Source: a virus
Length of the DNA stretch: 64,000 bases
Direction: 5' to 3' (one strand)
IMG/VR virus record: IMGVR_UViG_3300024262_000015
Location: 64,001 to 128,000 of that record
The translations under genes were made by a program, and so were the position numbers. Below the pieces are notes generated by a model. It saw only the letters and a program-made list of their open reading frames with translations, was not told where the DNA came from and did no database searches. Shown one piece after another: positions 10,372-64,000 of this stretch; position 1 is the first letter of the stretch, and every line of letters starts with the position of its first letter.

Positions 10372-11073
10372 ATGGCTTTAAGATTAGAACAGCCTGGCAT
10401 TCAACCGCTAGGACAATTTGATGGATACGACGACCAAATTGCTACCATTCTTGGTGGTGAAGTTGGAGCGATTGTTGGTATTCTAGTGAGCAATCCGGAC
10501 CTTGCTGCATCTGATGCGGACGGTTCAGATGGTTATATTGGTGCTCCTCCACTACAACGACGTACGATTATTACGCGAAACCTTGTTGCTTCCAACATCA
10601 ATAGGCCTCTAGGGCTTTTGGATGATGGTACGTCTACTGGCTTCTCGTCAACTGGTTACGGAACCCTTTTGGGTGTTGTGGTTGGTGGAACTGCTGGTCG
10701 CCAGTCCGTTGGAGGGGTCGTACTCGGTCCGCCCACCGCACTTGGTTCCGGTAAAATTACTTTCTGGGATAAGCCCGGTTTGTATGCCACCACGCTAGAT
10801 GCGGTTGATAGAGATCCGGTTGACGGACTTCTACCTTCCAACCTAAGTCTCACCGTTGGTTCGCCGCTCTTTGCTACGGATACGGGTCTTTTGACTCCTG
10901 ATGCTGCTGAGAGCTTCGAGGTAGGACTTGTTCTTGCTCGTTTCCTTGAATTCATGACTGATGGTTCATTGGTCAACACGCCGGTTAGCTTGGTAGCCCC
11001 AGTAACTGGCCCCGGATCGCGCCCGCAAACGTTCACCCGAGCGGTTTACGAGTTCTATCCGCCACGCACGTAA
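10372..11073 (+). CDS. Putative capsid decoration protein
   Basis: Directly upstream of MCP, GAGGA SD, Gly/Thr/Val-rich, codon usage like MCP, two DGY motifs. Confidence 0.65.
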   Translation: MALRLEQPGIQPLGQFDGYDDQIATILGGEVGAIVGILVSNPDLAASDADGSDGYIGAPPLQRRTIITRNLVASNINRPLGLLDDGTSTGFSSTGYGTLLGVVVGGTAGRQSVGGVVLGPPTALGSGKITFWDKPGLYATTLDAVDRDPVDGLLPSNLSLTVGSPLFATDTGLLTPDAAESFEVGLVLARFLEFMTDGSLVNTPVSLVAPVTGPGSRPQTFTRAVYEFYPPRT

Positions 11074-11124
11074 GGTGTCTTAGCCCCTTTGGGAATTAAC
11101 CTGGAGGGGCTAAACCCTTTTTTT
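11072..11124 (+). terminator. Long hairpin with U-tract between the decoration gene and MCP
   Basis: TTAGCCCCTTTGGG...CCTGGAGGGGCTAA stem followed by T7. Confidence 0.6.
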
Positions 11125-11168
11125 GGCTGTTAACGAAAGTAGGCAGCTACTAACCAGGAGAAAAAAAT

Positions 11169-14901: not shown

Positions 14902-14926
14902 GATCAATAGGTAAGAACGAAAGATG

Positions 14927-16526: not shown

Positions 16527-18026
16527 ATGGGTTTTTCACGTACTAATGCGCTTAATCAAGCGCTCGATGTAGCCGGCTCTTTTACAGTTAATTCGGCTAA
16601 AGTTCTTACCGACGAATCTGCAGGCTTAGGCCAATCGCAGCAAACCGGAGTTGATGGTTACCTAACTGGTTCCTCACCGACTATTACTCTAACTGCAGCT
16701 TCTGCTACATTCACTGCAGCCAGTGTTGGTAACTTTGTTACTATTACTGGCTCAGGAACGGGTGCAAATAACAGCACTCACTTAATCGTAGCGTTTAGCA
16801 GCCCTACTGTTGTCGATCTTAGTATCGTTGGCGGCGCGGCTGATGCTTTACCGCTACCTTGGACCGAACGCGCTCCATATAACATTGAAGATGACCTCAA
16901 CTTTGAACGTACTGACCGTGCCGCAATTAAGGGTGTTGCCTATGATACGGCTGTAACTCCCTACAGCCGTCCTTCTACCTCTACCACTCTTACGCCGATG
17001 AACCTTGAGCAAATCTCGGGCAAAACCCTTGATGCTAAAGCACTAATCGTTAACCGTACGGAAGAAAACGCTCCAGTTGAAGATGGTTATACCGTACTTG
17101 TTCTTTCTGGTGCCTTCCAATATGCCGATGCTGTAGATCAAACTGGTTATCCGATTAATGATGGATTTGATGCGGGCAACCTTTCGGCTACCTATTGTGA
17201 AATCATCGACCCAAGTACCGAAGCTGGGGTAGTTATTCCGGATGGTTATGCAAATGCTGGTCAACGAATTTATGGTATCGCTCAACAGGGGTCTCAAACT
17301 GAAGGCTTAGGCATTGAAATTGCTTTTTATCGAGTTGCTCTTGGCGACCCGATTACTACGGCAAATCCCTACACTTGGAATGCTGGTCCAGAAATGCCTA
17401 CACAGCTTGACCTTTTCCTCGGTTATCGTACCCAAATGGATGACATGGGGGAAGCAGACCTTCGTGTTACCATGGTTAATGGTCTTATCGGTGATTCTGG
17501 CGCACAGCTTGAGATTAATGATATTCGTCAAACCATTGGTACGGTTCAGGGCGATACGGATCTCGGCACCTATCTTACCAACCAAACGCCGTTTTATATC
17601 TTTGACGACCTAAGCCTTACGCCCACTGTTGTTGAAGCTCTAAACGTTCTTAACCTAGAGATTGGTAACCGAGATTATACAGGTGCTATTCTTACCGATG
17701 GTTATACAATCACCGCGTCTCTTCAACAGCTATCAGATGCTATTGCTGAGAATGCAGATGTTCTTCGTACGATTGAACGTTTGACTGTAAATGCTGCCGC
17801 TGGAGTAGCGCACACTGTTCCTGATTCTCTAACGTATGATATAGATGTCTCAAACAATGGTCGCGGCATGTGGCTTTACTGGCGAGGTGTTCTTAGAGAT
17901 CCGGGCCCTGTTGTTGATGGAAATGACTATGAGGAAACAAGCACATCTTCATTCACTCCTTATGCTACTATTAATAGTGGCGATCACATCAACTACTTTA
18001 TCATAACCGAGACTAACTCTCCGTAG
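16527..18026 (+). CDS. Putative abundant virion surface protein
   Basis: 499 aa, acidic and Thr/Gly-rich, codon usage like MCP, four DGY motifs. Confidence 0.65.
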   Translation: MGFSRTNALNQALDVAGSFTVNSAKVLTDESAGLGQSQQTGVDGYLTGSSPTITLTAASATFTAASVGNFVTITGSGTGANNSTHLIVAFSSPTVVDLSIVGGAADALPLPWTERAPYNIEDDLNFERTDRAAIKGVAYDTAVTPYSRPSTSTTLTPMNLEQISGKTLDAKALIVNRTEENAPVEDGYTVLVLSGAFQYADAVDQTGYPINDGFDAGNLSATYCEIIDPSTEAGVVIPDGYANAGQRIYGIAQQGSQTEGLGIEIAFYRVALGDPITTANPYTWNAGPEMPTQLDLFLGYRTQMDDMGEADLRVTMVNGLIGDSGAQLEINDIRQTIGTVQGDTDLGTYLTNQTPFYIFDDLSLTPTVVEALNVLNLEIGNRDYTGAILTDGYTITASLQQLSDAIAENADVLRTIERLTVNAAAGVAHTVPDSLTYDIDVSNNGRGMWLYWRGVLRDPGPVVDGNDYEETSTSSFTPYATINSGDHINYFIITETNSP

Positions 18027-18873: not shown

Positions 18874-19572
18874 ATGGTTGAAATTGACAGGTTTGACTTA
18901 GCTGATGTAGGAGTATCCGATCAAGTTGAGCTTCAGTCTGATTATACAGGATTTTATAAATCTGTAACTTTAGCTGATACAACCTCAGGTACCGCCACTA
19001 TAGTTGTATCAACAGTCAGCGATAACCTTCTTCATGCAGATAATCCTGTGGAGTCAGGTGATACTGTAGTTATTGCGGGTAATGCAGCAGCCGGAACATA
19101 CACGATTGATGTCATGATAAGTGATACTCAATTTACTGTAGTAGAATCTCTGCCCGACTCTACTGGTGGTACTTCTAGTTTTAGATATCCTCCTGGGGCC
19201 CAAAAGGTTGGATTTTATGTTGCTCCATTAAGCTTTACATCTGATGCTCCTAATGTTCAAAAAGTTATGGAGGCCATGGACGGCTACAAGCTTGCTGAAG
19301 AGTCTTTATCTTTAGCCATTAATTATGTCCAAAACGGATTTGAGGAAATAACTTATTCGGGAACCAAAGCTACAAATATAACACTTTGGGAAACGGCATC
19401 AAAACTAATTAAAGTACGAGAATCTCAACTAACCTATGATGGAAATAATGTATCTCAAGTTATCGATATTCAATACGATGCACTTGGAATAGAAAAGTAC
19501 CGCTTAACTCAAACCTATGTCTATACTGGAAACATGATCACATCTTCTACCCAAACCCGCACTGATGTATAA
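18874..19572 (+). CDS. Putative virion structural protein
   Basis: Beta-rich. GDTVVIAG...GTYTI module, YD-like C-terminal strands, one DGY. Confidence 0.6.
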   Translation: MVEIDRFDLADVGVSDQVELQSDYTGFYKSVTLADTTSGTATIVVSTVSDNLLHADNPVESGDTVVIAGNAAAGTYTIDVMISDTQFTVVESLPDSTGGTSSFRYPPGAQKVGFYVAPLSFTSDAPNVQKVMEAMDGYKLAEESLSLAINYVQNGFEEITYSGTKATNITLWETASKLIKVRESQLTYDGNNVSQVIDIQYDALGIEKYRLTQTYVYTGNMITSSTQTRTDV

Positions 19573-19970: not shown

Positions 19971-20906
19971 GTGAGAGCATTGATCCTCTCAGGTGGAGCC
20001 GGTAGAGGTTCGTTTCAAGTCGGAGTATTAAGAGGGTTACTAAAAAAAAATAAAGATTTAGATTATGACATATATGTTGGAAGCAGTGTCGGAGCTTTCA
20101 ATGCTGGGATTTTAGCTGGTGGACCTTTAAAAGAAACCGTACCAATTTTAGAAGATATTTGGCTTAAGAAAATCACTGGCAGACATTCTATTTGGCACCA
20201 CCTTTTAGCTAAAAGATTATTAATATTTGTAGCTATATTTGCTGGATTTATAAACCTAGCTTTTTTTTCTTTCCTAGCAGACAACCCTAAATGGTTAACT
20301 ACACTTCTTGCTTTAATTGCTTGGATTTGTATTTATTTGCCCTATAGGATGGTTAAACAAACACGCTCTGTTTATACAGCCACACCCTTAAAGCGAGAAC
20401 TTAGCAAGTACATTTTACAAGAACGAATTTTGCATGGTGGAAAGTCTTTAGTGGTAGCAGCTACTTGTCTTAGGACGGGAGAGCTTTTTTACTTTACGGA
20501 AAGCGATGTAGATCTAATTGAAGGAATTCATGCCTCGATGGCTTTTCCGGTTTTCTTTCCTCCAGTTTTTGTAAGAAACGAATGGTGTACTGATGGAGGA
20601 TTAAAAACTTATGCAGATATAAGTTCGGCTATAGATTTGGGAGCTACCGAAGTGGATGTAATTCTTACTGTTCCATTAGAAGAGTATAAAGATTTTAAGC
20701 CTACTATTTTTTCTCAAGTTATTCAGGTTATAGACGTTGTAACCATGGGAATTATCCAAAACGATATAAAGAAACACCGCTTCTCCGATGTTAAAATTAA
20801 TATTTACATGCCACCTAAAGGATTTTCTCATAAAAACCCTTTAAAGTTTGAACCAGCCTCTCTTAAAAAATCTTATAATGTTGGAGTTAAAGTAGGAGAA
20901 AAATGA
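19971..20906 (+). CDS. Patatin-like phospholipase with a two-helix membrane insertion
   Basis: LSGGAGRG oxyanion loop, GSSVG nucleophile elbow, DGG catalytic Asp, hydrophobic insertion. Confidence 0.9.
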   Translation: MRALILSGGAGRGSFQVGVLRGLLKKNKDLDYDIYVGSSVGAFNAGILAGGPLKETVPILEDIWLKKITGRHSIWHHLLAKRLLIFVAIFAGFINLAFFSFLADNPKWLTTLLALIAWICIYLPYRMVKQTRSVYTATPLKRELSKYILQERILHGGKSLVVAATCLRTGELFYFTESDVDLIEGIHASMAFPVFFPPVFVRNEWCTDGGLKTYADISSAIDLGATEVDVILTVPLEEYKDFKPTIFSQVIQVIDVVTMGIIQNDIKKHRFSDVKINIYMPPKGFSHKNPLKFEPASLKKSYNVGVKVGEK

Positions 20907-21976
20907 GCAAGCTTATTTATCTAGATGCAAATGCCCACGTCCCCATGAATAAGCAGGCCATCAAAGCTTATTGTGAATATCATGAGTCTATGGACGGTCA
21001 TGGTCATCCACTTTCAATGACTACTCCTGGTATTGGGGCCTCAATTAAACTGGAAGAAGCTCGTGAAAATATAGCTAACTGTATTGGTAGCGAAGAGGCA
21101 GGAAACGTTGTATTTACTTTTAACTGCACTCAAGCATGTGAATGGGCTATCAAAATCTTAGCTGATAATTGTCCTGTAACCTTTATTTCTGAGGGTGAAC
21201 ATTCTGCTGTTACTATGGCCTATAGAAAGTGGATAGGAGAGCCAAAATTTATAACTGAATATGTAGAAAACCATGATGGCTATAAAGACGCTGGCCTTGG
21301 GTGCATAAGAGTTCAAAACGAAACGGGATTAATTTATCCTGATTTAATCCACATGCCTTCCAAGTTATTATTTTGTGATATGAGTCAAGCTTTGGGCAAA
21401 ATAAATGTAGATGTTACAGGATTAGATATTGCCGCTTTCGGAGGTCATAAATTTGGTGGAACTAACTTAGGTTTCCTTTATTTTAAGGATCCTTCTTTAT
21501 GTGAAGAACTTAATTCTGGGTCTAGATATTTCCTTGATGCTCCTGGTACACCTAATGTGGCGGCTGCTGTAGCTACTTCTGTTGCTCTTATGGATGCGAT
21601 TCGAACTTTAGATGAACGCACCGAAAAAATGCGACAATTCCAAACTACTATTGAAGATTATTTTCAAAATAAAAACATTACAGTGGTTCATAAAGACAAG
21701 CCTCGTTCCCCCAATACTACTTTTATACACCTTCCTCACGCAATAAACCTTATCCATTCATTGTCTCAAAAGGGAATATTTGTAGGACTTGGCTCAGCAT
21801 GCGGTGCTCTACATGAAGGGTTAAGTCCTTTTATGAAATACTCTGGATATAATAATTCTTCTTCTCAAGACTTTATGAGGATAAGTCAATTTGGAGAATA
21901 TGGTATTGAGGAAGCCAAGCTGTTTATAGACCAATTTGATAAAAGCTTTGAAGAAGTTTTTCATAAGCCAGCATGA
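20903..21976 (+). CDS. NifS/IscS-like PLP-dependent cysteine desulfurase
   Basis: IYLDANA, EHSAV, NETG, DMSQALGK, GHKFGG (PLP Lys), GTPNV, GSAC (catalytic Cys). Confidence 0.9.
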   Translation: MSKLIYLDANAHVPMNKQAIKAYCEYHESMDGHGHPLSMTTPGIGASIKLEEARENIANCIGSEEAGNVVFTFNCTQACEWAIKILADNCPVTFISEGEHSAVTMAYRKWIGEPKFITEYVENHDGYKDAGLGCIRVQNETGLIYPDLIHMPSKLLFCDMSQALGKINVDVTGLDIAAFGGHKFGGTNLGFLYFKDPSLCEELNSGSRYFLDAPGTPNVAAAVATSVALMDAIRTLDERTEKMRQFQTTIEDYFQNKNITVVHKDKPRSPNTTFIHLPHAINLIHSLSQKGIFVGLGSACGALHEGLSPFMKYSGYNNSSSQDFMRISQFGEYGIEEAKLFIDQFDKSFEEVFHKPA

Positions 21977-22293
21977 AAAAGCCGAAGAAAATAAAATGTG
22001 AAATTTGTGGTTTAAAACAGCCTAAAGCCTTGCACTTGCATCATCTGACAGAACGGGTTGAGGCTAACTGTACCAACCACCCTTTAAACCTTCTGGTAGC
22101 CTGTGGTTCTTGTCACAGCTTAATTCATCAAAAAATTATCGAGGTTATAGGTATATGGCCTAGCTCTAACCCCACAAACGGGCGTACTGTCGTTTTCAAG
22201 AAGGAGGGGAGGTGTAACATACCAGAACTTGAAAACGTCTCACCACCTCATATATCCCAAGCACCAAGGATGAAAATTTATGGGAAAACGTAA
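21973..22293 (+). CDS. HNH endonuclease-like protein
   Basis: CEIC...LHLHH...NHPLNLLVACGSCHSLIH. Confidence 0.8.
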   Translation: MKKPKKIKCEICGLKQPKALHLHHLTERVEANCTNHPLNLLVACGSCHSLIHQKIIEVIGIWPSSNPTNGRTVVFKKEGRCNIPELENVSPPHISQAPRMKIYGKT

Positions 22294-23338: not shown

Positions 23339-23674
23339 ATGACTACTTCTATGTTTGCCAACCCAGGCCAAACGGTTACATTAACTGTTCAAACTGTTGA
23401 TGGTTATGGAGAAAGAGCTAATGTCGCTGCCCTTCCTAGAATAATGAGCGTTTTGTATCCTAGTCTCTCCCCGGTCTTAGGGTATCCACAAAACATGTCC
23501 AATGTTCAAACAGGGCTCTATGCTCATCAACTCACTCTTCCTACAGGGCCAGTTTCTTTAGGAACCTTTGTTGTTAGCACACGCTATGTAGCTTTGAATG
23601 GCAGTATTGTTTGGGACACTTTTCTTATTCAAGTAGCTCTCCCATTTGGAAATAGTTCGCTTTCCCCTTGCTAG
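23339..23674 (+). CDS. Single Ig-like domain virion protein
   Basis: PGQTVTL...TGLYAHQLTLP...LGTFVV pattern, one DGY. Confidence 0.6.
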   Translation: MTTSMFANPGQTVTLTVQTVDGYGERANVAALPRIMSVLYPSLSPVLGYPQNMSNVQTGLYAHQLTLPTGPVSLGTFVVSTRYVALNGSIVWDTFLIQVALPFGNSSLSPC

Positions 23675-24184: not shown

Positions 24185-25132
24185 ATGGCTATTGTCTGCC
24201 CCCCAATCATACCTCCTCAACCAGAAATAGTAATCCCGACCCGAATTGTTCCAAGAAGTGAAATAGCTCAGCCGGGAGATGCTATCGTTCTTTGCATGGA
24301 GTTTCGTGGACCCAATGGAGAACTAACCAATCTAGACGAGGTTCCTTCTATTGATATTGTTGAGCCTAATGGAAGAGTACGCACAAGCCAAAGCAAAGGC
24401 ATTTACCAACAGGGTACAGGAAAATATGCTTTTAATTTTGAAGTTGGGATAGCTCCAGATCTGGGTGTGTGGACCGATATTTGGAAAGGTATTATTAATG
24501 GGTTTGAGGTCTTTGGGTCTGGAAACTTTGTAGTAGCCACCTCTCAAATGCCCGCTCTTAACACAGATGGGTATAAACATTTAGGCGATGATCCGGGTTT
24601 TGACTACTCTCAAAATGCTATCTGTAATATAAATAGCTTAATTCAAATGCTTAGGGCTCGTTTAAGAAGCTCTGGAAAACGCCCTACTCACGATGAATAT
24701 GGCAACACTATCTTTGAAAATTGTGACATTTTTACTGTAGAAGAAATGGTAACCTTCCTGTGTACGTCTCTTGAACACTTTAATGCAGAGCCAACCTTCA
24801 CGTTTTTTAGCTTTGAAGATACCCCAATTGTTCAAAACTTTGGCTCAGTCTTAGTTCAGGGCGCTACTGTTTTTGCTTTAGGCGCTCAAGCTCTAGTAGA
24901 AAAAGGCAGAGAGCTAAACATTACTGATAACGGAATTAGCTTTACTCCACCTCAAGTATCTGATTTATTAAATACTCAATACTCCACCGAAATGACGCAG
25001 TGGATTGAAATGGTGCAGCGCGTCAAGAGAAATATGAAACCGAATCCTCTGGGGCTTGGTACATTCAGACCTCTTTCCGCTGCACCTCAAGTATTACGTT
25101 TACGCTGGCTTCGAGCTAGGCGGATCTTTTAA
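24185..25132 (+). CDS. Putative head-tail adaptor/neck protein with N-terminal Ig-like domain
   Basis: Ig-like GTGKYAFNF...GVWTDIW, then a helical domain with IFTVEEM and ITDNGISF typical of adaptors. Confidence 0.55.
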   Translation: MAIVCPPIIPPQPEIVIPTRIVPRSEIAQPGDAIVLCMEFRGPNGELTNLDEVPSIDIVEPNGRVRTSQSKGIYQQGTGKYAFNFEVGIAPDLGVWTDIWKGIINGFEVFGSGNFVVATSQMPALNTDGYKHLGDDPGFDYSQNAICNINSLIQMLRARLRSSGKRPTHDEYGNTIFENCDIFTVEEMVTFLCTSLEHFNAEPTFTFFSFEDTPIVQNFGSVLVQGATVFALGAQALVEKGRELNITDNGISFTPPQVSDLLNTQYSTEMTQWIEMVQRVKRNMKPNPLGLGTFRPLSAAPQVLRLRWLRARRIF

Positions 25133-42697: not shown

Positions 42698-43489
42698 ATG
42701 GCTACCGGCACTCTTTATTATACGGATTTATTTCAGCTAAATAATGTCGTCCAAAACACTCTTCTTACTTTTCCAAAAGAAGTGGCTATCGATCTTTTAA
42801 GAGATGAATTTAATAAAGATAGCTACTTTCATTTTGTAAGAGATGAGTGGGGATTTGTAAAAACCCCAAGCCTTCTTGGTGTTCCATCTGAGGCTGGGCT
42901 TCATGATGATGAGACAACAAGAATTTTTATTGCAGAGAAATGGCGGTTTAACACAATCTTTTATCCGGCTGTTTTAGTTTCTATGGGCAACATGGATTCT
43001 ACTCCTCTTTCTTTTAATAGGGATAGAGGGACTGTTCAATGGGAGGCAGTAAGGGTTTATGATGGGTATGGGAATTTTAAAAATATTTTTACTCCCAAAG
43101 CTTTTCTTTTTAATGGAGCTTGGCAGGGATCAATTAATGTAGATGTTTGGACGCGAGGAATTCGGGCCAGAGATGAAATTGTAGAATTTATTTCTTTAGC
43201 TTTTGTAGATATTCTTGAAAAAAGATTATGGAAAGCTGGTGTTTTTATTAGGGGTCTTAAAATTAGTGCACCTTCGGAAGGGGATGATTTAAATGAAAAA
43301 CTTTATAAGCAAACAATTACTGTAGATATTCGAACAGAATGGGCTAGAGCCATACCTGTTCAGAGTGTTTGTGATGCAATTGCCTTGTGTGTGGAGTTTG
43401 GAGTTCTCGATCCACCACCCCCAAGAATAGCGCCTAATTTGACTATTAGAACGGATGTGAATTTGCTTGATAAACTTGAAAGTCTTTAA
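42698..43489 (+). CDS. Putative tail terminator/completion protein
   Basis: Immediately before the sheath gene. YPAVLV...INVDVWT...RDEIVEFI pattern. Confidence 0.6.
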   Translation: MATGTLYYTDLFQLNNVVQNTLLTFPKEVAIDLLRDEFNKDSYFHFVRDEWGFVKTPSLLGVPSEAGLHDDETTRIFIAEKWRFNTIFYPAVLVSMGNMDSTPLSFNRDRGTVQWEAVRVYDGYGNFKNIFTPKAFLFNGAWQGSINVDVWTRGIRARDEIVEFISLAFVDILEKRLWKAGVFIRGLKISAPSEGDDLNEKLYKQTITVDIRTEWARAIPVQSVCDAIALCVEFGVLDPPPPRIAPNLTIRTDVNLLDKLESL

Positions 43490-46085: not shown

Positions 46086-46727
46086 ATGGCCATAACTGCT
46101 AATACAGGATCGATAGTTCAAGGCCCCGAGGGGGAAAGCGTTACACGTACTTCTGTAAGTACAAATATAATTATTGAAGTAGATGGAAATAAAATTGGCG
46201 CTGTTAAAAACCTTTCGGTGACGGAAGCTCGAAGTGTATCAATGATTGATGAAGTAGGAACAGATGGTCATATAGACTCTGTGCCGAATAAATCAACTGA
46301 CATTAGTGGAAGCTGTAAGAGAACTCGTTTTGGTAACTTAAGAATTGCCGCCGCATTTAGCAGGCCTTTTATTCATGCGGCCTCTCAGCGTATTCCTTTT
46401 GATATTATCATTAAGGATATTTTTGCGTCAGAGGCAGATTCCACTACCTTGACTACTGTTATCAAGAATGTTTGGATTACTCAAATTAGTTATCAGTATC
46501 AAGATACAGACTTTGTTATTGTGGATGATATGAATTGGCAGGCTGAAGCAATTTACTCTACAATGGGTCCGAATAGTGGTGCCGTTCCGATTCCGGGTGG
46601 CCCGATTGGTAGTCGAGACATGCCGCTTACAGATCTTAATCCGATTGAACAGGCAACTGATAAGGGCGATTTCCGTGGTGCTCTTACGGCTGGTGGCCTT
46701 TTGTTCGCAATTGACGAAACTGCTTAA
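46086..46727 (+). CDS. Tail tube protein
   Basis: Follows the sheath gene. IGAVKNLSVTEAR...EVG...PFDIII...NVWITQISY. Confidence 0.85.
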   Translation: MAITANTGSIVQGPEGESVTRTSVSTNIIIEVDGNKIGAVKNLSVTEARSVSMIDEVGTDGHIDSVPNKSTDISGSCKRTRFGNLRIAAAFSRPFIHAASQRIPFDIIIKDIFASEADSTTLTTVIKNVWITQISYQYQDTDFVIVDDMNWQAEAIYSTMGPNSGAVPIPGGPIGSRDMPLTDLNPIEQATDKGDFRGALTAGGLLFAIDETA

Positions 46728-50757: not shown

Positions 50758-53700
50758 ATGGGTGCGTTTAGTGATCTTGGAAACTGGCTTGATGATGCCG
50801 GATCTTCTGTTAGGGGTTTTCGGGATCTGATTTCTCGTGATACTCCTGATCCTACTGGAGGGCGCACCTATTTAGAAGATGGTTTTATACGAAATGTGCG
50901 ACCACAGCTTAGAGAGGTTTTGTGGCAAGCTCCTAATACCACTATTGTTATTAAAAAGAGAGCGTTCTCGTCTTTAGCAGAGAATTATAATCTAGATCTT
51001 TTAGAAGAAAAAGAAAAGCTATTTTATAGAGCTACTAAAAAGCTTTTCCAAAACAAAGCAAAAGCATTGGCGGCCTATGAACGTCTTACTAAAATAGAAA
51101 AGATTTCTTCTGTAACGGGAAGAGTTAATTCTCATTTAATGCCAACCATTTTGAATTCGGTTGCAGAGCTAGAAGACCAAGGACTATTTAATATTTTTGA
51201 TAACAAAACCCAATGCGCAATTCAAAGATTAAGAAACATTGACGCCTTTAGTGATCCTACTGAGTTCTCTCAATGGTGGGTTGAGCCAGGTCAGCCTTTT
51301 AATGGAACCCTAGGTGCTGGCACAGGGTCTTTTGATTTAACCGTGTTGTCTAGTGTAAGAACAACCACGTCTGTAAAGCTTGGGGGTGGTGGCTGTTCTA
51401 TAGAGCTTCAGAATCCCTATGATATAATGCTTATAGGTCAGGCAGATATTACGCGGGCTATTGTTGAGGCTACCAACTTTACCGAAAATTCTGGGGCTGA
51501 ATTAGAAAGAACAAATGATAATTTAATTCAAACCTTAAATAACCTTAGGCTTGGGACTCGACAGGGAGATTCGGAAAACAATCTTGATCTTTCTTTGATA
51601 GGAGGACAAGGAAATGTCTTTAGTTCCAGTCTTCCCAACCAGCCACCGATTACGTTTACTGTTCAGCCTACCTTTCGAACGAGACCGGTAAGAGCCTTTA
51701 TTGAGCAGCTAGGAATAGTAATTCCTTATACTTATGTTCCTGGTTTAGTTCCTGTTGTAGAGGTACAGGACATTCCACAATTAACAGCCGAAGAAAGAAG
51801 GCTAGTAGAAATTATTATTGGAAATTACATAACTCTAATAGATTTACAAACGGTTCAAAGATTTGATACAATAACTTTTAATAAAAATGTAAATTATGTT
51901 CGAAGAAAAATGACTTTACATTATGATAGCAAATCTATGATTCAGCCAATGGACATAGTAAATATATTTATGACTTCTAATACCCAAAGCGATGGCGCTC
52001 TAACCAGTGGTATGGGTCAAGAATCTACTGGATCAACTTTAGCAGGAAAGATTAATGGGATTCTTGGTCACATGAAAACAACTTATGGTCGTCTAGATGA
52101 AAAGAATGGGACAACCGGAAAGTTTGTCACTCAAGATGAATTAGAAAAGATAGCAGTTGCAGGTCCTGGGTTTCCTAATTGGATGTGGAGAGAGTATAAG
52201 GGTGCGCTTACATCTCAACCTGAGGGACTAGCGGTATTTGTAGGGGTAGTTAAAGAGGCAGAGAGTTCGTATAGAGATGGTGAGTTTCAGTTAAGCGTTT
52301 CATGTGGAGACAATTCTGAATATTTTGATCATACTCAAGTAAATATTAATCCTTCTTTAAATGTTCCCAATGGTGATTTGCTTGATCCACTTACTCCCTT
52401 TAATGTGAGTTTTGATGCTGTTACTGGCTTGGCTCCTGGAGGGCAACCTGAAGTGCTTCCAGAAAACCAAACCCTTCTCGACACAAAAGTAGCGAGGGTT
52501 TATAGTGGGCGATGGCGGGGGTATGGGGCGATTACTCAAGATATCTTTAATTCTAGAGATGGAGATATATCCGGCTCTAGTCTTCAAGAGATATTGGCTA
52601 CGCCCGCAGGATTTGTTTATAGATGGAAAGAAGGAATTGGTGGCTGGGTAGGGAGTGGTCCATCTACAACCTTAGGTTCTAGGTCAGTTCAGCCACGCAT
52701 AGTAACTGATCCCTTTGCGGGACAGGATGTAATGAATGCTTTATCTTTATTGGTAACAGCACAGCCATACAACTTTAATTTGTTTTTACAGAATGCTATG
52801 CAGAGCACTCTTACCTCTGCTGATGCTCAAGGCCCGGATTCTAATACCGGAGATTTTTCTGCGAAGACATTTTTGGAAAGTCTTTTGGGAGAAGTTCGGA
52901 GACTTAATTCAGTTTGGGGCGGCTTTCTTCCGTTCAAGTCTTTGGTAATAGGGTCAGCCGCCGAGACTGCTATCCTTACCCAACAGGCTCAGCTTGTAAC
53001 AGAAAGTTTGGAGATAAACCGCCTTCTTACTCAACAGGCCGCGTTAATCCAGGCATTAATAGTAGGGAGCCCTAATCCTACACAAATTTCTAATCAGCTT
53101 AAAGGTAAGACTCCAGAAAATGTTCCTACTATTGCTACATCTCAGGCTACATCTGAGGCAAAAATTAAGCTTGGGTTGGTACAAAATAAGCTGGATGAAA
53201 GAACGGCTCAATTTGTACGAATGCAGCGGAACCTAAATGAAGCAAACCTTCAGGGTGGCTTTAAGATTTTGGGAAACAATATTCTTTATGATCCTGTTCT
53301 TTCCCCTGCAGAAGATACAAACGATTCAGTACAAAAAGAAAAGAGCCAGTCTGCCTTTAGAGATAGGTTGGGGTTCCTTACTTTAAGAAGGATTTGGCAG
53401 GTACGAGCAAACTTTGACAAGAATTATTTTGTTGTTGACGATCAGTATGATAAAAACGGAGAGATACAGGCTTTTGAAAGAAAAGTAAACAGTTCCAATA
53501 TGAAACTGTTTGAAAGTGAGTATACAGATCTTAAACAAAAAATGATTAAAGCCGCAGAGGTTTTGGGTCTAGAAGTTTTTGCTAGCACTCAAGGTCACAT
53601 TGTTGCGCGTCCACCTTTATATAATCGCATCCCTAGTAGTGTTTTAAATGATTTGTTTTTACAAACTGAAGAGACTGGTATCCAATTTTTCCCTGAGTTT

Positions 53701-55974
53701 TTTCAAAATCTTTTCGTAAATCAAGGCCAAACTCTTCTTAGAGATATTGAAGTTCTAGAGACGCAGATAAGAATAATTGGAGTTATTTTAGGGTTTGCTA
53801 GGGATGCCCAAACGTTAGATGTTAAATTAAGTAAATTTTTATCTAAGTCTGTTGCAGATGGGTCGTTGTTTGCTTTTATTACTACAGTAAGCGGGAACCT
53901 GGCTGATTTTGGATTAGAAAAGCTTTTTACTCTTACCAATCCAGATATGTTGGATCCTAAATTGACCGATTCTTTGGATGCATTATCAAGGTTAAGATTC
54001 CAGGCTGGGGCCAGAGAGATTTTTCCTGTAACTAATCAGGTAGAGGCCTTTACTGAAACGCTAAATATACGTGCTTTGAGTGAAACGCTTCCTTCAGAGT
54101 CAGAAGAGATTATTAGAGTTTTATCTAATAAATATCTTCTTCTTACTCAGCAACAGGCTCCTATTGATGAGTGGGTTAAAGAAGCTAGTACAGCGCCGGG
54201 GCGAAGGCATCTTATTTCGAATTTGGCTGAGTTTATAAATACTCGTCAAACGTCAGCGGTGTCGGCAGCTAATGTGGTTAAGAATATTCAAGAGCTTGCT
54301 GACTTTAATCGAAACCCTTCTAAAGCAATTCAAACCGCATCTTTTCCTAATCTAAATTCTAAAAGCACTCTTCCTTCAGTCATTGAACATATGATTGAAA
54401 AAGAGAATAATGATGAATTAGGTCCAGGATCAGGTCAGAGATTTATAATTAAAGATGTGGAAATTATTTCTTGGAGTTTAGAAGAAAAGGCTCCAGATTA
54501 CAATACGGTTTTGGTTACTGGGAAGATTGATACAATTACTGGGCGGATCGGCGGCCAGGTGGAGGCTCCTCCAGGGTTAGCATTTAAATCATCACCAGGA
54601 AATGTTGGTGGCAATCTTATGACCACCGCAATGGCCGTAGATTATGACATGTGGAGGATGTATGGGCTTAAGACTTCTGAAGGGATAGAGGCTCCGTTCT
54701 TTGGAGACGCAGAAAGCCAATGTCTTCCTTATGCTGTCTATCTTTTGAATCTTCAGCGTAGAAATATTTTTAGAGGCAGCATTACTTTACGGGGAAATGA
54801 ATATTACCAGCCTGGAGATGTGGTCTTTATAGAGAGCCGGGGGATGCTTTTTTATGTAGAAAAAGTTTCGCATTCCTTAGGGTTTAATAGAAGCTTTCAA
54901 ACTACTTTGACTTTGACATATGGAAGGAAGCCAGGCGAATTTATTCCTACTATGCTAGATATGGTTGGTCAGCTTTTGTATGCTCCTGCTAAGCGTGGTC
55001 AGTTTCAGCGAAGCTCGCGCTTTAATGCTGAAGGGAAAAATGTACCATTGGCCTTAGGAGGAATTGCCATTTCGTTGGCTGGGCTTCCATCTGTAGAGGA
55101 GGAGAAGAGCGCTGGAAGAACTACAACTACGAGAACTGTTACCATTGTTACAACTACCCCTCCGGGTGTTACGCCGCCACCCATTGTGCCATCCACCGCT
55201 GCACAGAAGACTGAAGCCGAATCCCGCGCTCTTGTTTCCGGTCAAATATTAAATGGTCCATTAGGATTAAGAAATCAAAATATTATGCAGGGTGTATTAT
55301 CGGCATTATCTGGTGAGCTAGGCGTAACAAATAAAACTAAAAATATTGTTATTATAAGAACTTTTACGACGAAAAGAGTAACTCCAGAAAGAAAAGAAAT
55401 AATTGAGAAAGGTCCCGAGGTTGTTAAGCAATGGCTTCTTAATCCTACGACTTTTTGTGAAGACGGCACTTCTCCAGTCACTAGCGATACCCTTGCTCCT
55501 TTAAGGCTGAGTCCAGATAATATTCAAATAGTAATAACTGATTTAGATGCAGAAGGTGCTGGTCAAACCACTAAGGTTGGAGCAAGCATAGAAGAAGCTG
55601 CAGAAGAGGGAGAGCTAAGCAAATTTCGTTTTTTTGCTCCGGTCTCGGCTCAAGCTTGGGGTGCGGCTCGGTTATTGTCTACACAAGGATCTTTTGCGCG
55701 TGTAACTCAGGCTGCTTCTTGTGAAGGAGATATTCCGTCAGCTAATGAGCTTCTGAAAACTTTAGTTTCTCAGGTTATAGAGTTATGGTTGGTTAAGGAA
55801 GCGGTTATTCCTTCTATTGAGCGACCTCAAAATCAGTCTAATCCTAGTCAAGCTTCACAAGATGATAACTTGGCAATGAATGAGGCGGGACTAGCGAGGG
55901 CTGAAGATAAGCGAGTAGACGATGCTGCCGCGCTTCCTGAGGTTAATGAAAGCACCGCAGGAGAGCCGCTATGA
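50758..55974 (+). CDS. Large baseplate hub protein
   Basis: 1738 aa. IQPMDIVNIF, VFVGVV, GLEVFASTQGHIVARPP, GSITLRGNEYYQPGDVV...YVEKVSHS...TTLTLTYGR. Confidence 0.75.
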   Translation: MGAFSDLGNWLDDAGSSVRGFRDLISRDTPDPTGGRTYLEDGFIRNVRPQLREVLWQAPNTTIVIKKRAFSSLAENYNLDLLEEKEKLFYRATKKLFQNKAKALAAYERLTKIEKISSVTGRVNSHLMPTILNSVAELEDQGLFNIFDNKTQCAIQRLRNIDAFSDPTEFSQWWVEPGQPFNGTLGAGTGSFDLTVLSSVRTTTSVKLGGGGCSIELQNPYDIMLIGQADITRAIVEATNFTENSGAELERTNDNLIQTLNNLRLGTRQGDSENNLDLSLIGGQGNVFSSSLPNQPPITFTVQPTFRTRPVRAFIEQLGIVIPYTYVPGLVPVVEVQDIPQLTAEERRLVEIIIGNYITLIDLQTVQRFDTITFNKNVNYVRRKMTLHYDSKSMIQPMDIVNIFMTSNTQSDGALTSGMGQESTGSTLAGKINGILGHMKTTYGRLDEKNGTTGKFVTQDELEKIAVAGPGFPNWMWREYKGALTSQPEGLAVFVGVVKEAESSYRDGEFQLSVSCGDNSEYFDHTQVNINPSLNVPNGDLLDPLTPFNVSFDAVTGLAPGGQPEVLPENQTLLDTKVARVYSGRWRGYGAITQDIFNSRDGDISGSSLQEILATPAGFVYRWKEGIGGWVGSGPSTTLGSRSVQPRIVTDPFAGQDVMNALSLLVTAQPYNFNLFLQNAMQSTLTSADAQGPDSNTGDFSAKTFLESLLGEVRRLNSVWGGFLPFKSLVIGSAAETAILTQQAQLVTESLEINRLLTQQAALIQALIVGSPNPTQISNQLKGKTPENVPTIATSQATSEAKIKLGLVQNKLDERTAQFVRMQRNLNEANLQGGFKILGNNILYDPVLSPAEDTNDSVQKEKSQSAFRDRLGFLTLRRIWQVRANFDKNYFVVDDQYDKNGEIQAFERKVNSSNMKLFESEYTDLKQKMIKAAEVLGLEVFASTQGHIVARPPLYNRIPSSVLNDLFLQTEETGIQFFPEFFQNLFVNQGQTLLRDIEVLETQIRIIGVILGFARDAQTLDVKLSKFLSKSVADGSLFAFITTVSGNLADFGLEKLFTLTNPDMLDPKLTDSLDALSRLRFQAGAREIFPVTNQVEAFTETLNIRALSETLPSESEEIIRVLSNKYLLLTQQQAPIDEWVKEASTAPGRRHLISNLAEFINTRQTSAVSAANVVKNIQELADFNRNPSKAIQTASFPNLNSKSTLPSVIEHMIEKENNDELGPGSGQRFIIKDVEIISWSLEEKAPDYNTVLVTGKIDTITGRIGGQVEAPPGLAFKSSPGNVGGNLMTTAMAVDYDMWRMYGLKTSEGIEAPFFGDAESQCLPYAVYLLNLQRRNIFRGSITLRGNEYYQPGDVVFIESRGMLFYVEKVSHSLGFNRSFQTTLTLTYGRKPGEFIPTMLDMVGQLLYAPAKRGQFQRSSRFNAEGKNVPLALGGIAISLAGLPSVEEEKSAGRTTTTRTVTIVTTTPPGVTPPPIVPSTAAQKTEAESRALVSGQILNGPLGLRNQNIMQGVLSALSGELGVTNKTKNIVIIRTFTTKRVTPERKEIIEKGPEVVKQWLLNPTTFCEDGTSPVTSDTLAPLRLSPDNIQIVITDLDAEGAGQTTKVGASIEEAAEEGELSKFRFFAPVSAQAWGAARLLSTQGSFARVTQAASCEGDIPSANELLKTLVSQVIELWLVKEAVIPSIERPQNQSNPSQASQDDNLAMNEAGLARAEDKRVDDAAALPEVNESTAGEPL

Positions 55975-57986: not shown

Positions 57987-60035
57987 ATGCCCTGCGATCC
58001 TGGTGACAATAATTTAAATCCTCCGGTTCTCCCGCCGCCTCCTTTGGTACCAGGATTTGGGATCCCTTTTTCTCCTATCCAGATTCCTTATCCTGATGTT
58101 GCTATCCCTGAAGGAATTCCTGAAGATGTCCTTGCATTAGTAAATTCAATTTTTGCATGGCTTCCTGGAGGATTCAATTTAAAAGCTGTAACCAGTGAAA
58201 CCCTCCAAAACACATTGGACGCGGTAGCTAGCGTTCTAGGTAGTATTCAGCCTTGGCTTAGTTTATATACTTTTTTTCAACCAGTTCTAGATATTATTCT
58301 TTGTATTTTGGATATTATATGTGCATGGCCAAATCCATTTAAAGTAATTCGAGCTACCAAGAGATTGTTTAAAGAATGCATTCCGGCTTTTCTAAGCTTG
58401 TTTCCTTGGTTTGCGTTGGTGGCTTTAATTTATAGTTTGCTGCTTCTTTTAATAGAGCTTTTGTTATTTATGATTCAAAAGCTTACTGAGTTTATTGAAC
58501 AGCTTATAGCCAACCTTCTTGTTTTGGCCCAAGCCGCTGCTCTTAAAAGCGAAGAAGCGGTTTTAGCCGCAACGCTTAAGATTGCTTATTTGTTTTGCAT
58601 CTTTGAACAACTGTTTGCGGTACTGGTGATGTTCCAAGTAATCTTTGGATCAATTAAATCAGTTCTTGGGCTGTCCGGAAAGTTTGTGTGTTTTGGTTCA
58701 AGCTCAGATTGTTGTGATGAATGTCCGACGTTTCCTGAGGAGGGAATTACAGGAACATTAGGGGCTCTGTTTTATCTTAATGAAGTGGAACAAAACCCTC
58801 CAGCCTTTCCACCATTAAGAAATGAATCATGGCAGTTTGGTGATGCATCTTCTCCTCCACAAGCACCGGACGAGCAAATAATAAGCATTGTAACTCCAAT
58901 AAACTTTTGGCCAGAGGGGATAACCTTTACGGCTGACTCTACTCCGGCCAAGGTTCCTTATACTGTGGATATGAAATTAACTTTAGATCCGCATGTGTTT
59001 CATCCTTTATCACCAGCCGGTCTTAAAACGTTTAATATTACTAACTGCATTGTAAGTCAGCAGCCTGTACCTGGGGTAGAGGGTGCAACTCCTACCTCTA
59101 CTATTTCTTCAGGAGTTGTAAAGCTGGTTGGTGGGTTAGTAACAAACGCCGATGGTACTCCCTTTATGGTTCCGGTTGGTGCTCCTGCGGCTGACCAACA
59201 ACAAGCTACCTTAGAAACATTTATCCATCTAAGCCCTTCTATTTTCCCAGGAGGAAAAGAAGAGGTAATTCAAGATATTTCGTATACTCTTAAGATTAAT
59301 TATGAAGCTCTTTTGTTTTATCAACTTATTACAGTTGGTTGTGTTCCTGAAATAGCTTATGAGGCTGAACTGCTTAGCTTAAGGCTTCCAAATCTTGTAT
59401 CTTTAGAAGAAAAGATTGGTGGGCCGTTGCCAGATATGGATGCGGGCCTTTTGTGTCTGCAAACCTCTCTTAATAACCTTAGGAAAGATGTGTCTTTTGC
59501 TAAGGTGGGAGAGTTCCAGTTAGAAACAATTGCCTGTATTGATGTGATGAGGGCAGATGCGTGTCGAGGTCTTGTAAGCGCTTTAGAAAGCAGTATAGAT
59601 GTTTTCCATTCTACTATAGAGGTAGATCCAGAAACTCAGTTTATTAATCTGCCTATAAAAGCTACGGTTCAACTATATGATGCTAACAATACCCCATTGG
59701 CATTTCAAATACCTGAAGACTGTCCAGTGGATCTTGATTTGCAAGGACAGGTTACTTTGGGAGAAATATCGGACTTTGTTTTTGATCCTGGTACGGGTAC
59801 GTTTAATGCGGACATTAATAGTGCCAATGAGGGAGATGGGTATCTAAGCGTTACCTTTAATGGTGAAGCGTTTTCGGATGTAGAGGGGCTGGATGTAGAT
59901 GATCCTACTTCCATTGTTACCCGACTAGTTCCCTATACCTTTATTGGAATTGGTGGACTGACTGGAACAAGCGGTCAAGATCCATTACCACGCAGAGATG
60001 TTACCGATACTTCAGCTCTAGAGGGAGGTGATTAG
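57987..60035 (+). CDS. Baseplate-module protein with long hydrophobic helices and C-terminal Ig-like domain
   Basis: 682 aa, Pro-rich start, FPWFALVALIYSLLLLLIELLLFMI, Cys cluster, one DGY. Confidence 0.65.
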   Translation: MPCDPGDNNLNPPVLPPPPLVPGFGIPFSPIQIPYPDVAIPEGIPEDVLALVNSIFAWLPGGFNLKAVTSETLQNTLDAVASVLGSIQPWLSLYTFFQPVLDIILCILDIICAWPNPFKVIRATKRLFKECIPAFLSLFPWFALVALIYSLLLLLIELLLFMIQKLTEFIEQLIANLLVLAQAAALKSEEAVLAATLKIAYLFCIFEQLFAVLVMFQVIFGSIKSVLGLSGKFVCFGSSSDCCDECPTFPEEGITGTLGALFYLNEVEQNPPAFPPLRNESWQFGDASSPPQAPDEQIISIVTPINFWPEGITFTADSTPAKVPYTVDMKLTLDPHVFHPLSPAGLKTFNITNCIVSQQPVPGVEGATPTSTISSGVVKLVGGLVTNADGTPFMVPVGAPAADQQQATLETFIHLSPSIFPGGKEEVIQDISYTLKINYEALLFYQLITVGCVPEIAYEAELLSLRLPNLVSLEEKIGGPLPDMDAGLLCLQTSLNNLRKDVSFAKVGEFQLETIACIDVMRADACRGLVSALESSIDVFHSTIEVDPETQFINLPIKATVQLYDANNTPLAFQIPEDCPVDLDLQGQVTLGEISDFVFDPGTGTFNADINSANEGDGYLSVTFNGEAFSDVEGLDVDDPTSIVTRLVPYTFIGIGGLTGTSGQDPLPRRDVTDTSALEGGD

Positions 60036-61717: not shown

Positions 61718-61723
61718 GGATGA

Positions 61724-62164
61724 ATGTCATTTGACCTAAGAATATCCGAAGGTGATCTTTCACTTTCAGCAGAAAACGATTTAGCTACTGTAGAGAATGG
61801 AGACAAGCTCATTCAAGATATATTAAAAATAATTCAAACCCCTATTGGAGGGAATGCCTTTTTTCCTTGGTATGGCTCTCCTGTGGCTAACACTTTAATC
61901 GGTACCTCTTTGGATACAGGATTTATTTCTTCGGTAGCATCTTCCCAATTGCGTGCCAGTTTGGATAATTTAAAGACGCTTCAGAATGCACAGTTAAGGG
62001 AGTTTGGCCAAAACGTTACTCCTCAAGAACAAATAGCTGCAATAGAGGGCGTTTCTGTAGAGCGTAATGCTATTGATCCCCGCTACTTCTCTGTTTATGT
62101 TTCTATTATTTCCAAAGCCAGAACACGAGAACAGGTAGAGATTCAAATAGATCCCACCTTGTAA
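61724..62164 (+). CDS. Baseplate wedge protein (gp25/gpW-like)
   Basis: DL.....GDL...KLIQDILKIIQTPIGGNAFFPWYGS. Confidence 0.85.
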   Translation: MSFDLRISEGDLSLSAENDLATVENGDKLIQDILKIIQTPIGGNAFFPWYGSPVANTLIGTSLDTGFISSVASSQLRASLDNLKTLQNAQLREFGQNVTPQEQIAAIEGVSVERNAIDPRYFSVYVSIISKARTREQVEIQIDPTL

Positions 62165-62280
62165 ACTCTTTAACTGCCGGCTGTAGGCTTTCTTTAATGT
62201 AGGCTATTAAAATCGGATGCATTATTACGCATTTGGGTTGGGTATAGTGTTAGTTAAGCCTTTTTTAGCAAGAGTGGTAC

Positions 62281-64000
62281 ATGGTAAGAATCCGAACTCA
62301 AAACGAGATTGTTCTGGATACAATCGATTTTTTTAGGAAAGCTAAGCCCCAGCTTGATACCAAACCAGGAACTGTAGCGCGGGATTTAGTTATTAATGCT
62401 CCTGCCTCTCAGCTTGCTCCATTATATGAAGCGCTAGCACAGGTGGAATCTAGCCAGGCCTTGATAAATGCTATTGGCCAAAACCTAGATAGACTAGGAC
62501 AAAACTTTGGAGCTTCTCGATTAGATGGTAGCCGATCTTCGGGAGAGGCGTTGCTGACTTTTGCAAGTTTAGAAGCTGACATAGTTATTAATGCCGGCAG
62601 TAGTATTGCTTCTAATAATGGGTCAACGTTTCAGGTTTCTCAAGGAATTACGATCAGTGTTATTCAAAAGAATTTCTATCGTTCCTTGGCTTCTAGGTTT
62701 AGGCAGGATTTAGATTTCGTTGGGATTACAGATGAGTTTGCGGCATTGGTTCCGGCGCAAGCAACTCAGCGTGGCTCCAGCAGCAATATATCTCGCTTTG
62801 CTTTAACTGCCACTGCTATACCGGGGGTCGATAACGTAACCAATCCCAATGCTTTTGGTGGTGGTACAGATTCAGAAACAGATGCGGCGTACAGACAGAG
62901 GATTTTAGGAGTTTTCTCAGGCGCTAATACAGGAACCACTACAGGTTATCGGCAGGCCATCCTTGGTATTGCAGCCGCTTTAGATGCGAGGGTAGTTGGT
63001 CCAGGCAATCCCCTAATGACGCGCGACGGAACGGATGTGGTTGACGTAGATGGGGTACGGATAATTGTGTCTGAGGGTACGGGTGGCAAGGTAGATATAT
63101 ACGTGTTCGGATTAAGAATTCAATCTATTCTAGATACATATATTTACCGAGATAAGAGCAATACCGGAGATGCTACAGCTACGATTAATGACTTTGTGTT
63201 GGGACAGATTGATGGTGATGAGGGCAAGACTGTTTCTACTCGAAGGGTAGAGAACTTACAAAATGAAACACTGCCAGATCAACCGGTTAACAATATTGTT
63301 TCTGTGGTTGGCTCGGCTAGTGGGGAAAACTTTTTGCCTATTTCCATTAACGAATTTGGGGTAATCTCGGGTAACTATCAATTAATAAGAGATACCGGAG
63401 CGTTTGGTGGAAGTCCTTGGGGTTTTGATAAGCTTCATTGGATCTCTAATCAGATAATAAACTTTAAGGAAGATCTTACTAAGGGAATTTTTAATGGCCA
63501 AGATCCCCTTTCGTTTACTGATGCTACTAGAATAGGGGGAGCGACTCAGCCTTACTCGGTAGCCAATGAAAATAGCGATGTAAATCCAGTAGATAGATCC
63601 TCTATTCAGCTACTACATTATCCCGTTACCAATGTAAGCCGAGTTTTTAATGTGACAACCGGAGAGAGGTATGTTGTATCTAATCAGAACCCAGATGGAA
63701 CAGGGGCACAAAACAATACTGGTAGAATAACAATCCGGGGAAATACTCTTCCTACAACTACAGATATTTTACAAATAGATTATACTTGGCTTTATAATTA
63801 CGATCCTAATTATGATTTTTATAATTTGGAGAGTGGAGAAAATATACGCCCTGCTGTGGATGTTATAGACTGGGGCTTTTCTAATGATGTACGGCAAGAA
63901 AGAGAGCCGGTTGAAGATGGTTATTTAAATGTTATTCATCCGGTAAGTTCTGTTATTAGCGTTAATACTTTTGAAGAGGTTCTTTCAACAGTAACTTCCG
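62281..64000 (+). CDS. Baseplate J-like wedge protein, truncated by the window end
   Basis: MVRIRTQNEI...KPGTVARDL...GQNLDRLGQNFG...GGTDSETDAAYRQRI. Confidence 0.85.
   Translation, partial: MVRIRTQNEIVLDTIDFFRKAKPQLDTKPGTVARDLVINAPASQLAPLYEALAQVESSQALINAIGQNLDRLGQNFGASRLDGSRSSGEALLTFASLEADIVINAGSSIASNNGSTFQVSQGITISVIQKNFYRSLASRFRQDLDFVGITDEFAALVPAQATQRGSSSNISRFALTATAIPGVDNVTNPNAFGGGTDSETDAAYRQRILGVFSGANTGTTTGYRQAILGIAAALDARVVGPGNPLMTRDGTDVVDVDGVRIIVSEGTGGKVDIYVFGLRIQSILDTYIYRDKSNTGDATATINDFVLGQIDGDEGKTVSTRRVENLQNETLPDQPVNNIVSVVGSASGENFLPISINEFGVISGNYQLIRDTGAFGGSPWGFDKLHWISNQIINFKEDLTKGIFNGQDPLSFTDATRIGGATQPYSVANENSDVNPVDRSSIQLLHYPVTNVSRVFNVTTGERYVVSNQNPDGTGAQNNTGRITIRGNTLPTTTDILQIDYTWLYNYDPNYDFYNLESGENIRPAVDVIDWGFSNDVRQEREPVEDGYLNVIHPVSSVISVNTFEEVLSTVTS

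Follow-up and report, generated by a model that had tools for sequence, protein, structure and literature searches.

A strict Asp-Gly-Tyr tripeptide in outer virion proteins of uncultured huge phages, a candidate tyrosine glycosylation sequon

Short sequons direct protein glycosylation in bacteria, such as D-(S/T)-(A/I/L/V/M/T) in Bacteroidota and D/E-X-N-X-S/T for PglB of Campylobacter, and in chloroviruses virus-encoded cytoplasmic transferases glycosylate the capsid protein. Sugars O-linked to tyrosine are found on S-layer proteins of Paenibacillus and Thermoanaerobacter and on glycogenin, which glucosylates itself. In this study, we analyse an ordered tripeptide, Asp-Gly-Tyr (DGY), in the late proteins of a virus represented by IMG/VR record IMGVR_UViG_3300024262_000015, a single contig of 139,564 bases without terminal repeats which is about 33 % complete according to CheckV, i.e. 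a genome fragment. The window is the stretch of 64,000 nucleotides at bases 64001-128000 of this record; coordinates refer to the window and its plus strand, except where they are called genome positions.

Like the bacterial sequons, DGY is a motif within the range of three to five residues that starts with an acidic residue and occurs in many unrelated proteins, which one machinery would serve. In those sequons Ser/Thr or Asn is modified beyond the cytoplasmic membrane, whereas for DGY the candidate acceptor is tyrosine, assembly of the target proteins is cytoplasmic and soluble-type GT-A/GT-B families provide the candidate enzymes. The tyrosine-glycosylated S-layers and glycogenin are a precedent for the proposed linkage, in proteins and with enzymes unrelated to those of the phage; we know of no DGY-type sequon described for them. 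Chloroviruses are alike in that a structural protein of the virus receives its oligosaccharide from the virus's own soluble transferases, at non-canonical sites; however, these are eukaryotic viruses with N-linked capsid glycans, and the resemblance of a GT4-like gene of the present clade to a chlorovirus enzyme is one of general GT-B fold only. Mycobacteriophage virion glycosylation is similar in that phage transferases lie near structural genes (here, in relatives) and in the cytoplasm-made glycan coat that we propose. In mycobacteriophages the glycans are reported at capsid and tube C-termini (Freeman 2023, as cited in PMC12619734), whereas here the major capsid protein (MCP) and the tube (31 of 31 sequences) are without DGY, so that a mark on capsid and tube is not what is found. 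The candidate mark, known from sequence alone, is instead an internal loop tripeptide in sheath, fibre and baseplate proteins.

An ordered tripeptide in the late proteins

DGY appears to be a real short linear motif that is kept by selection in probably exposed loops and flexible runs of outer virion proteins, namely the outer domain of the sheath, a large pre-sheath protein, the baseplate, two giant fibres and several unassigned late proteins. Amongst the 57 non-nested plus-strand open reading frames (ORFs) of the window (18,994 residues), 26 DGY occur in 13 proteins, exactly the number and places given in an earlier reading by eye, hereafter the sequence-only reading. By ORF start these are 10372 (two), 16527 (four), 18874, 20903, 23339, 24185 (one each), 26937 (three), 34253 (four), 37142 (three), 42698 (one), 43578 (three), 57987 and 62281 (one each), with close pairs such as DGYDGY, DDGYFAIEDGYW and RDGYGNPIDGY. 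The expected number is 2.32 from the composition of each protein (Poisson P = 9e-19) and 4.06 from a first-order Markov model (P = 3e-13). Amongst the tripeptides seen in the window DGY is the sole outlier, the next best reaching P = 1e-4.

The motif is ordered and strict. DG is followed by Y 26 times, by T 11 times, by F seven times and never by W, while GY is preceded by D 26 times, by T five times, by E three times and never by N; neither DGF or DGW nor NGY or EGY is enriched. That tyrosine is required, and not any aromatic residue, fits recognition of, or chemistry at, the tyrosine hydroxyl.

Codons for Gly and Tyr differ between sites, and Asp is GAT at 24 of the 26. In the whole record the pattern GAYGGNTAY occurs 56 times on the plus strand, 47 of them in frame (sum over the per-ORF list), and five times on the minus strand. 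Because of these frame and strand counts and the varying Gly and Tyr codons, the signal lies in the protein and not in the DNA, as the sequence-only reading had it, and a DNA repeat or a restriction or methylation site is ruled out. Around 109 non-redundant DGY sites the only four flanking residues that deviate at P < 0.01 are Gly (2.5-fold) and Trp at +1, Tyr at -1 and -5 and Pro at +6, with Tyr at -1 arising from tandem runs. Flank preference is thus nearly nil and the unit is the tripeptide alone. These features, together with the unrelated contexts of the sites, reject a single shared homologous domain as the whole source of DGY.

The excess is confined to the late part of the record. From 74.3 kb to the record end there are 45 DGY against 2.80 expected, with P(Y|DG) = 0.33, whereas 1.1-74.3 kb (23,575 residues) holds two against 2.80 and tyrosine follows only 2 of 86 DG (Fisher P = 2.6e-9 for the contrast). 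Within the earlier part, the replication and chaperone genes at 1.1-37 kb have two (1.33 expected) and the terminase and large head-region proteins at 37-74.3 kb have none (1.47 expected). The over-representation in target proteins and not elsewhere that marks a sequon is found in the window, the record and the clade.

Absence from the MCP, tube and tape measure, another of the earlier claims, is confirmed by the ORF counts and by a tblastn search with an uninterrupted 338-aa MCP ortholog from the relative G001, which located the four exons of the MCP gene (11172-11390, 12022-12081, 13100-13576 and 14620-14883), all without DGY. The ORFs 12227 and 13732 that interrupt this gene are LAGLIDADG proteins. 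A 213-aa protein after the sheath, the tube by its position (46086..46727), has no DGY, nor has any of its 30 homologs from the sheath loci described below (0 DGY in 31 of 31 sequences). The same is true of a 1738-aa protein, the tape measure by size and position (50758..55974), and of its counterparts in the 10 relatives with ORFs listed. ORFs 47771, 49822, 55971 and 60035 are likewise free of the motif. The late proteins that lack DGY total 6,233 aa, for which the rate in the DGY-bearing ones would give 25.6; as the two groups were divided with the counts already known, this figure is descriptive and no test.

The background against which the excess is read is itself raised. A 50-kb structural stretch of T4 (75001-125000) has 10 DGY against 2.7 expected (P = 5e-4), one in each of 10 proteins; the counts are two against 3.8 for 50 kb of structural genes in Eggerthella phage LE2-3, and five against 2.2 for a 50-kb stretch of phiKZ in which structural and other genes are mixed. 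In the non-structural parts of two whole relatives, G001 and G042, the counts are 20 against 11.0 and 24 against 14.7. Relative to the composition estimate, ordinary proteins thus lie at roughly 1-2 fold, with the T4 structural stretch reaching 3.7 fold, so that the true excess above such a background is about 5-7 fold, not 11 fold. The T4 value also implies that a DGY excess in tail proteins is always in part ordinary. Runs of DGY have no counterpart in these controls.

Loop positions and turnover in relatives

The structural setting is clearest in the tail sheath, an 826-aa protein (43578..46058) with DGY at residues 180, 187 and 204. Foldseek matches it to the sheaths of phiCD508, phi812, P1, T4 and phiKZ (E = 7e-12 to 1e-5), which identifies it as a sheath; its distant homologs align just over residues ~610-826. 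The AlphaFold model has a pLDDT of 84-91 over residues ~130-310, where D180, D187 and D204 each begin an inter-strand loop of the variable inserted domain (DSSP coil for 3 of 3), and the inserted domains of phage sheaths face outward. Shortly beyond the window are two giant fibre genes, of which the first codes for 2214 aa with 10 DGY and the second for 970 aa with nine, including the run DGYDGYADGY. A model of fibre 2, built on 24 sequences, has a mean pLDDT of 77.6. Over the sheath and fibre-2 models, DSSP assigns coil to 11 of the 12 DGY tyrosines, as against 52 % of all residues (P = 0.005) and, for the remaining tyrosines, 15 of 34; the terminal run of fibre 2 forms a loop with pLDDT below 50. 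The earlier suggestion of a recognition sequon on exposed beta-turns is in this way partly supported, namely as to loops, unrelated proteins and tandem runs, whereas a modification, a crosslink or a docking partner stays hypothetical.

The inserted sheath domain that bears DGY (residues ~130-250, window ~43965-44327) also recurs in non-sheath proteins. In a representative library six such carriers of 243-1097 aa were seen (P0099, P0115, P0117, P0120, P0124 and P0127), and 4 of the 6 have six DGY each, partly at the same turns as the sheath.

A search with the sheath gave 30 viral loci at 39-60 % identity, whose ORFs contain 188 DGY against 23.6 expected (169 against 21.2 after removal of two duplicates). 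In 29 aligned sheaths DGY falls at eight columns, three of them common (24, 22 and 13 sequences), and sheaths without the three common columns have it at other columns, so that one to three are kept per sheath. Where a common column lacks DGY, the residues are D-N-S, D-S-F, D-A-N or D-S-N before Gly or Asn, so that DGY takes the place of the two tip residues in ordinary D-x-x-G hairpin turns. The 263-aa pre-sheath protein (42698..43489) has its DGYG, at residue 122 here, at one alignment column in 17 of 21 sequences. Syntenic counterparts of the 1819-aa protein upstream of the sheath (37142..42601; DGY at 277, 614 and 621; no Pfam family) are 1441-1958 aa long and have 3-11 DGY, some in tandem runs such as DGYDGYDGYDGY and DGYGDGYVDGYFGADGY; a further run in relatives is DGYDGYDGYGGDGYDGYGTDGY. 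All 64 fibre-2 homologs found have between one and 12 DGY, and an alignment of 24 of them places the motif in 28 columns, seven occupied in at least half of the sequences and 13 in a single one.

Amongst the best 150 sheath homologs from 1.84 billion representatives, DGY is at 6-12 times expectation in all rank bins, and short homologs (~440-590 aa) mostly have none. The DNA pattern for three consecutive DGY was found at 45 loci of the viral collection, and at 27 of these the reading frame gives DGYDGYDGY, in most cases within a protein longer than 1,000 aa. INPHARED gave just one weak sheath match, at 25 % identity, in Eggerthella phage LE2-3, and no paper on a DGY motif in phages was found in the literature. 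DGY sites in relatives are partly conserved and partly replaced, and the enrichment is common to the relatives.

These observations bear on the possibility of a structural turn motif without any reader, in which Asp caps the turn, Gly makes it and Tyr packs on a strand, and which drift and gene conversion would carry from one beta-rich protein to another. The sites are indeed at strand ends and turns, Gly at +1 (D-G-Y-G) is over-represented, and a background excess exists (1.6-1.8 fold for non-structural proteins in G001 and G042, 3.7 fold for the structural region of T4). Nevertheless, such a motif ought not to avoid beta-rich inner proteins such as the tube (31 sequences), to form tandem runs in low-confidence, probably flexible loops, or to be gained convergently at many columns while the count per protein is kept, and the excess of 8-17 fold stands well above the background, which stays below 2 fold in non-structural proteins and is 3.7 fold in the T4 region. 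We give this explanation a quite small chance.

An unmodified adhesion or binding motif would use the same loops in another manner: tyrosine and aspartate at loop tips would make many weak contacts with a polysaccharide, a mineral, a metal ion or the host surface layer, and runs would raise avidity. Confinement to outer proteins and loops, multiplication in runs, and the replacement of D-(A/S/D)-N in D-x-x-G turns at the hairpin tips of the sheath all agree with it, as does the absence of an enzyme from the record in the searches described below (GT2, GT1 and GT8 models; 51 genes of relatives). A binding surface of three residues in any fold context would however be unusual, the sugar-stacking residues Phe and Trp are not enriched, nor are Asn and Glu, and the constant end of the DGY-rich genes at a transferase block would go unexplained. 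It is on balance unlikely. Outer location, multiplicity and strictness would also suit a tag at which a decoration protein docks, covalently or not, to cover the outside of the tail; no candidate reader protein was found and three residues are very short for protein-protein recognition, which leaves it very improbable.

Glycosyltransferase genes and the proposed sequon

The relatives place glycosyltransferase (GT) genes next to the DGY-rich region. All five large relatives (G001-G005) have 4-9 GT2 matches each, the majority in a cluster that lies 33-40 kb downstream of the sheath, and share the gene order baseplate J, fibre 1, fibre 2, a GT4-like gene (~380 aa) and then GT2 genes, with one or two small genes between fibre 2 and the GT4-like gene in some. 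Pfam assigns 8 of the 10 ORFs scanned behind fibre 2 in G003 to transferases: one GT4/GT1-like, four GT2, one GT10-like, one GT11 and one Glyco_trans_1_2. The GT4-like profile matches GT-B enzymes, including chlorovirus B736L (PDB 3oy2_A, E = 1.8e-5).

With this profile 156 relatives were found in the viral collection; 80 loci were kept, of which the 64 of at least 20 kb were used and 16 shorter ones dropped. In the 10 kb upstream of the GT4-like gene these 64 loci have 781 DGY against 46.2 expected, with at least five per locus, whereas the 10 kb downstream have 22 against 30.8. The DGY boundary coincides with the GT4-like gene in 64 of 64 loci, which show conserved synteny but are kin, several near-identical and five from records already counted, and do not represent 64 independent events.

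A sister clade, with sheaths of 996-1137 aa, shows near-expected DGY around the sheath and 0-1 GT2 per record, placed elsewhere. In its complete genome, G042, there are a single GT2 gene and, behind the fibres, two GT4-like genes; the two fibres contain eight DGY against 1.16 expected, and the rest of the genome 24 against 14.7. In the sister clade the mark is limited to the fibres adjoining its GT4-like genes. The contrast fits a tie between fibre-adjacent transferases and the DGY mark, as a single comparison. Homologs of the transferase cluster were found at 3 of the 27 in-frame DGYDGYDGY loci and at 0 of the 18 others, the loci being short. A record can carry the DGY mark without the enzymes simply by being cut at the boundary between fibre and transferase genes.

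Taken together, strictness for Tyr and Asp, location in loops and runs, restriction to outer proteins, turnover with kept counts and the transferase neighbourhood fit a tyrosine glycosylation sequon. We put the probability that DGY is such a sequon, read by phage enzymes in the cytoplasm, at roughly 40 %. In the cytoplasm, a phage glycosyltransferase would recognise DGY on virion proteins during or after folding and link a sugar to its tyrosine hydroxyl, further transferases of the same gene block would extend this sugar into an oligosaccharide, and the outcome would be a glycan coat on the tail exterior. We infer that any modification takes place, that its kind is glycosylation and that tyrosine is the acceptor, as also which transferase would start. 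A fuller version, of virion-wide tyrosine O-glycosylation throughout the huge-phage clade, with GT4-like enzymes starting, GT2, GT10-like and GT11 enzymes extending to a fucose-containing oligosaccharide, and coat density tuned by gain, loss and tandem multiplication of tags, is more tentative.

Several points weigh against the sequon. No result of this analysis shows a modification, and tyrosine O-glycosylation is rare. To our knowledge T4 is without such a transferase battery, yet it has 10 against 2.7 DGY in its structural stretch. The enzyme link is one of synteny within one large clade and would represent few independent events. GT2 matches occur in 8 of 22 records with in-frame DGYDGYDGY and in 2 of 13 with the pattern in another frame, most of these records being small fragments. 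Searches of the six frames of the record, itself about one third of a genome, with GT2, GT1 and GT8 models gave no match, nor did 51 genes from downstream of fibre 2 in four relatives find a match in it, so that the transferase link comes from the relatives only. Transferases near fibre genes could serve DNA or host surface glycans instead, both of them uses cited in PMC12619734. The same paper, citing Freeman 2023 (Cell Host Microbe), places mycobacteriophage glycans on capsid and tail tube C-termini, in the very proteins that are without DGY here.

The lack of an enzyme in the record would be explained by where the fragment stops, 467 bp after fibre 2, at the place where relatives have their transferases. 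The last small ORF of the record has homologs in the post-fibre-2 neighbourhood of relatives, and from this synteny the transferase block of the phage is predicted just beyond the contig end.

Some other modification of Tyr or Asp by an unrecognised phage or host enzyme (phosphorylation, sulfation, nucleotidylation, DOPA formation, tyrosine crosslinks or Asp-Gly succinimide/isoaspartate) would account for the same strictness and placement. The record also encodes a tyrosine/dual-specificity phosphatase-domain protein (genome 54749-55939), the one Tyr-related item amongst the ORFs scanned, although phosphatase domains of the PF03162 type have other uses in viruses. Pfam searches of 80 of the 131 called ORFs of this one-third-complete record found no kinase, sulfotransferase, PIMT, Fic, tyrosinase, radical SAM enzyme or glycosyltransferase, so that the PIMT, kinase, sulfotransferase and radical SAM enzymes listed in the sequence-only reading are not borne out there; a PHROG scan of 10 ORFs was likewise negative for transferases, kinases, sulfotransferases, PIMT and radical SAM enzymes. 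No syntenic partner comparable to the transferase block is known for these chemistries, to which we allow a small chance.

The phosphatase-domain protein has 396 aa and lies in the head module, with the domain at its N-terminus (PF03162, E = 3.5e-14); a G001 homolog has 34 % identity over 157 aa and G042 has none. A 321-aa protein at genome 9366-10331, without a known family, was considered as an enzyme candidate. It matches a G001 gene that lies between two GT2 genes (33 %, E = 2e-63), is among the early genes in the record and is absent from G042. It was rejected, as the Atlas matches are viral hypothetical clusters, the model is poor and the PDB gave one weak match, to a PIN domain.

Other genes of the record and the meaning of the motif

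The remaining DGY-bearing proteins of the window are spread over its late genes. Just upstream of the split MCP gene is a 233-aa protein (10372..11073; DGY at 17 and 53) without a Pfam or PHROG family, whose orthologs have one DGY in G001 and none in G042. A 499-aa protein (16527..18026; DGY at 43, 186, 239 and 391) has no Pfam family and just a weak PHROG match to 'pectin lyase activity' (E = 0.004), and its G001 ortholog has one DGY. It is followed by proteins of 232 aa (18874..19572; DGY at 136; two in the G001 ortholog), 111 aa (23339..23674; DGYG at 21; one in the G001 ortholog) and 315 aa (24185..25132; DGY at 128; orthologs with none in G001 and one in G042). An 802-aa protein (26937..29345; DGY at 18, 97 and 529) has no homolog in G001 or G042 and no Pfam or PHROG family, and a 531-aa protein (34253..35848) has DGY at 184 and 187 (the DGYDGY pair), 228 and 286, with four in its G001 and one in its G042 ortholog. 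For these seven proteins a virion role is suggested by gene position only. Beyond the weak PHROG match just given, no Pfam or PHROG family was assigned to any DGY-bearing ORF of the window other than the sheath, baseplate J and ORF 20903.

Further downstream are a baseplate-region protein of 682 aa (57987..60035; DGY at 617; one in the G001 ortholog) and a baseplate J-like protein of 1083 aa that starts at 62281 and runs past the window end at 64000 (PF04865, E = 1e-17; DGY at 546). The description of the carriers as surface virion proteins is thus shown only for the sheath, by fold match, and for baseplate J, by Pfam. ORF 20903 (20903..21976) is a class-V aminotransferase or cysteine-desulfurase-like enzyme (PF00266, E = 4e-25) without an ortholog in G001 or G042. 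Its single DGY, at residue 125, is probably due to chance and outside the mark.

This enzyme belongs to an accessory-gene insert among the late genes (19971-22293 and 32485-33186), which also holds a patatin-like phospholipase and an HNH endonuclease; a 233-aa protein whose TNB domain is of the Cas12f1/TnpB type follows further along. Counterparts in G001 or G042 are lacking for most of these genes. Elsewhere in the record, the early region (genome 2649-36433) codes for topoisomerase I, the DNA polymerase III alpha subunit, an SbcCD-like pair, a RecA-like protein, trigger factor and DnaJ. Two large head-region proteins (genome 56725-61482 and 44971-47988) have Hint/intein and LAGLIDADG_3 matches and, on these domain matches, probably carry inteins.

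Even if no modification takes place, the 8-17 fold excess with which a single ordered tripeptide occurs in one protein class is a clear and testable signal of constraint. If DGY does direct a modification, phage particles would gain their first defined sequon, of a new kind aimed at tyrosine, and modified sites would be predictable from sequence in hundreds of uncultured huge phages. A short, portable and tandem-tolerant tag with its transferase would also be a tool for site-specific protein glycosylation in the bacterial cytoplasm. For the phages themselves it would mean that a block of eight or more transferases is invested in coating the tail, with a bearing on host recognition, particle stability and protection from proteases and from binding factors of the host or the environment.

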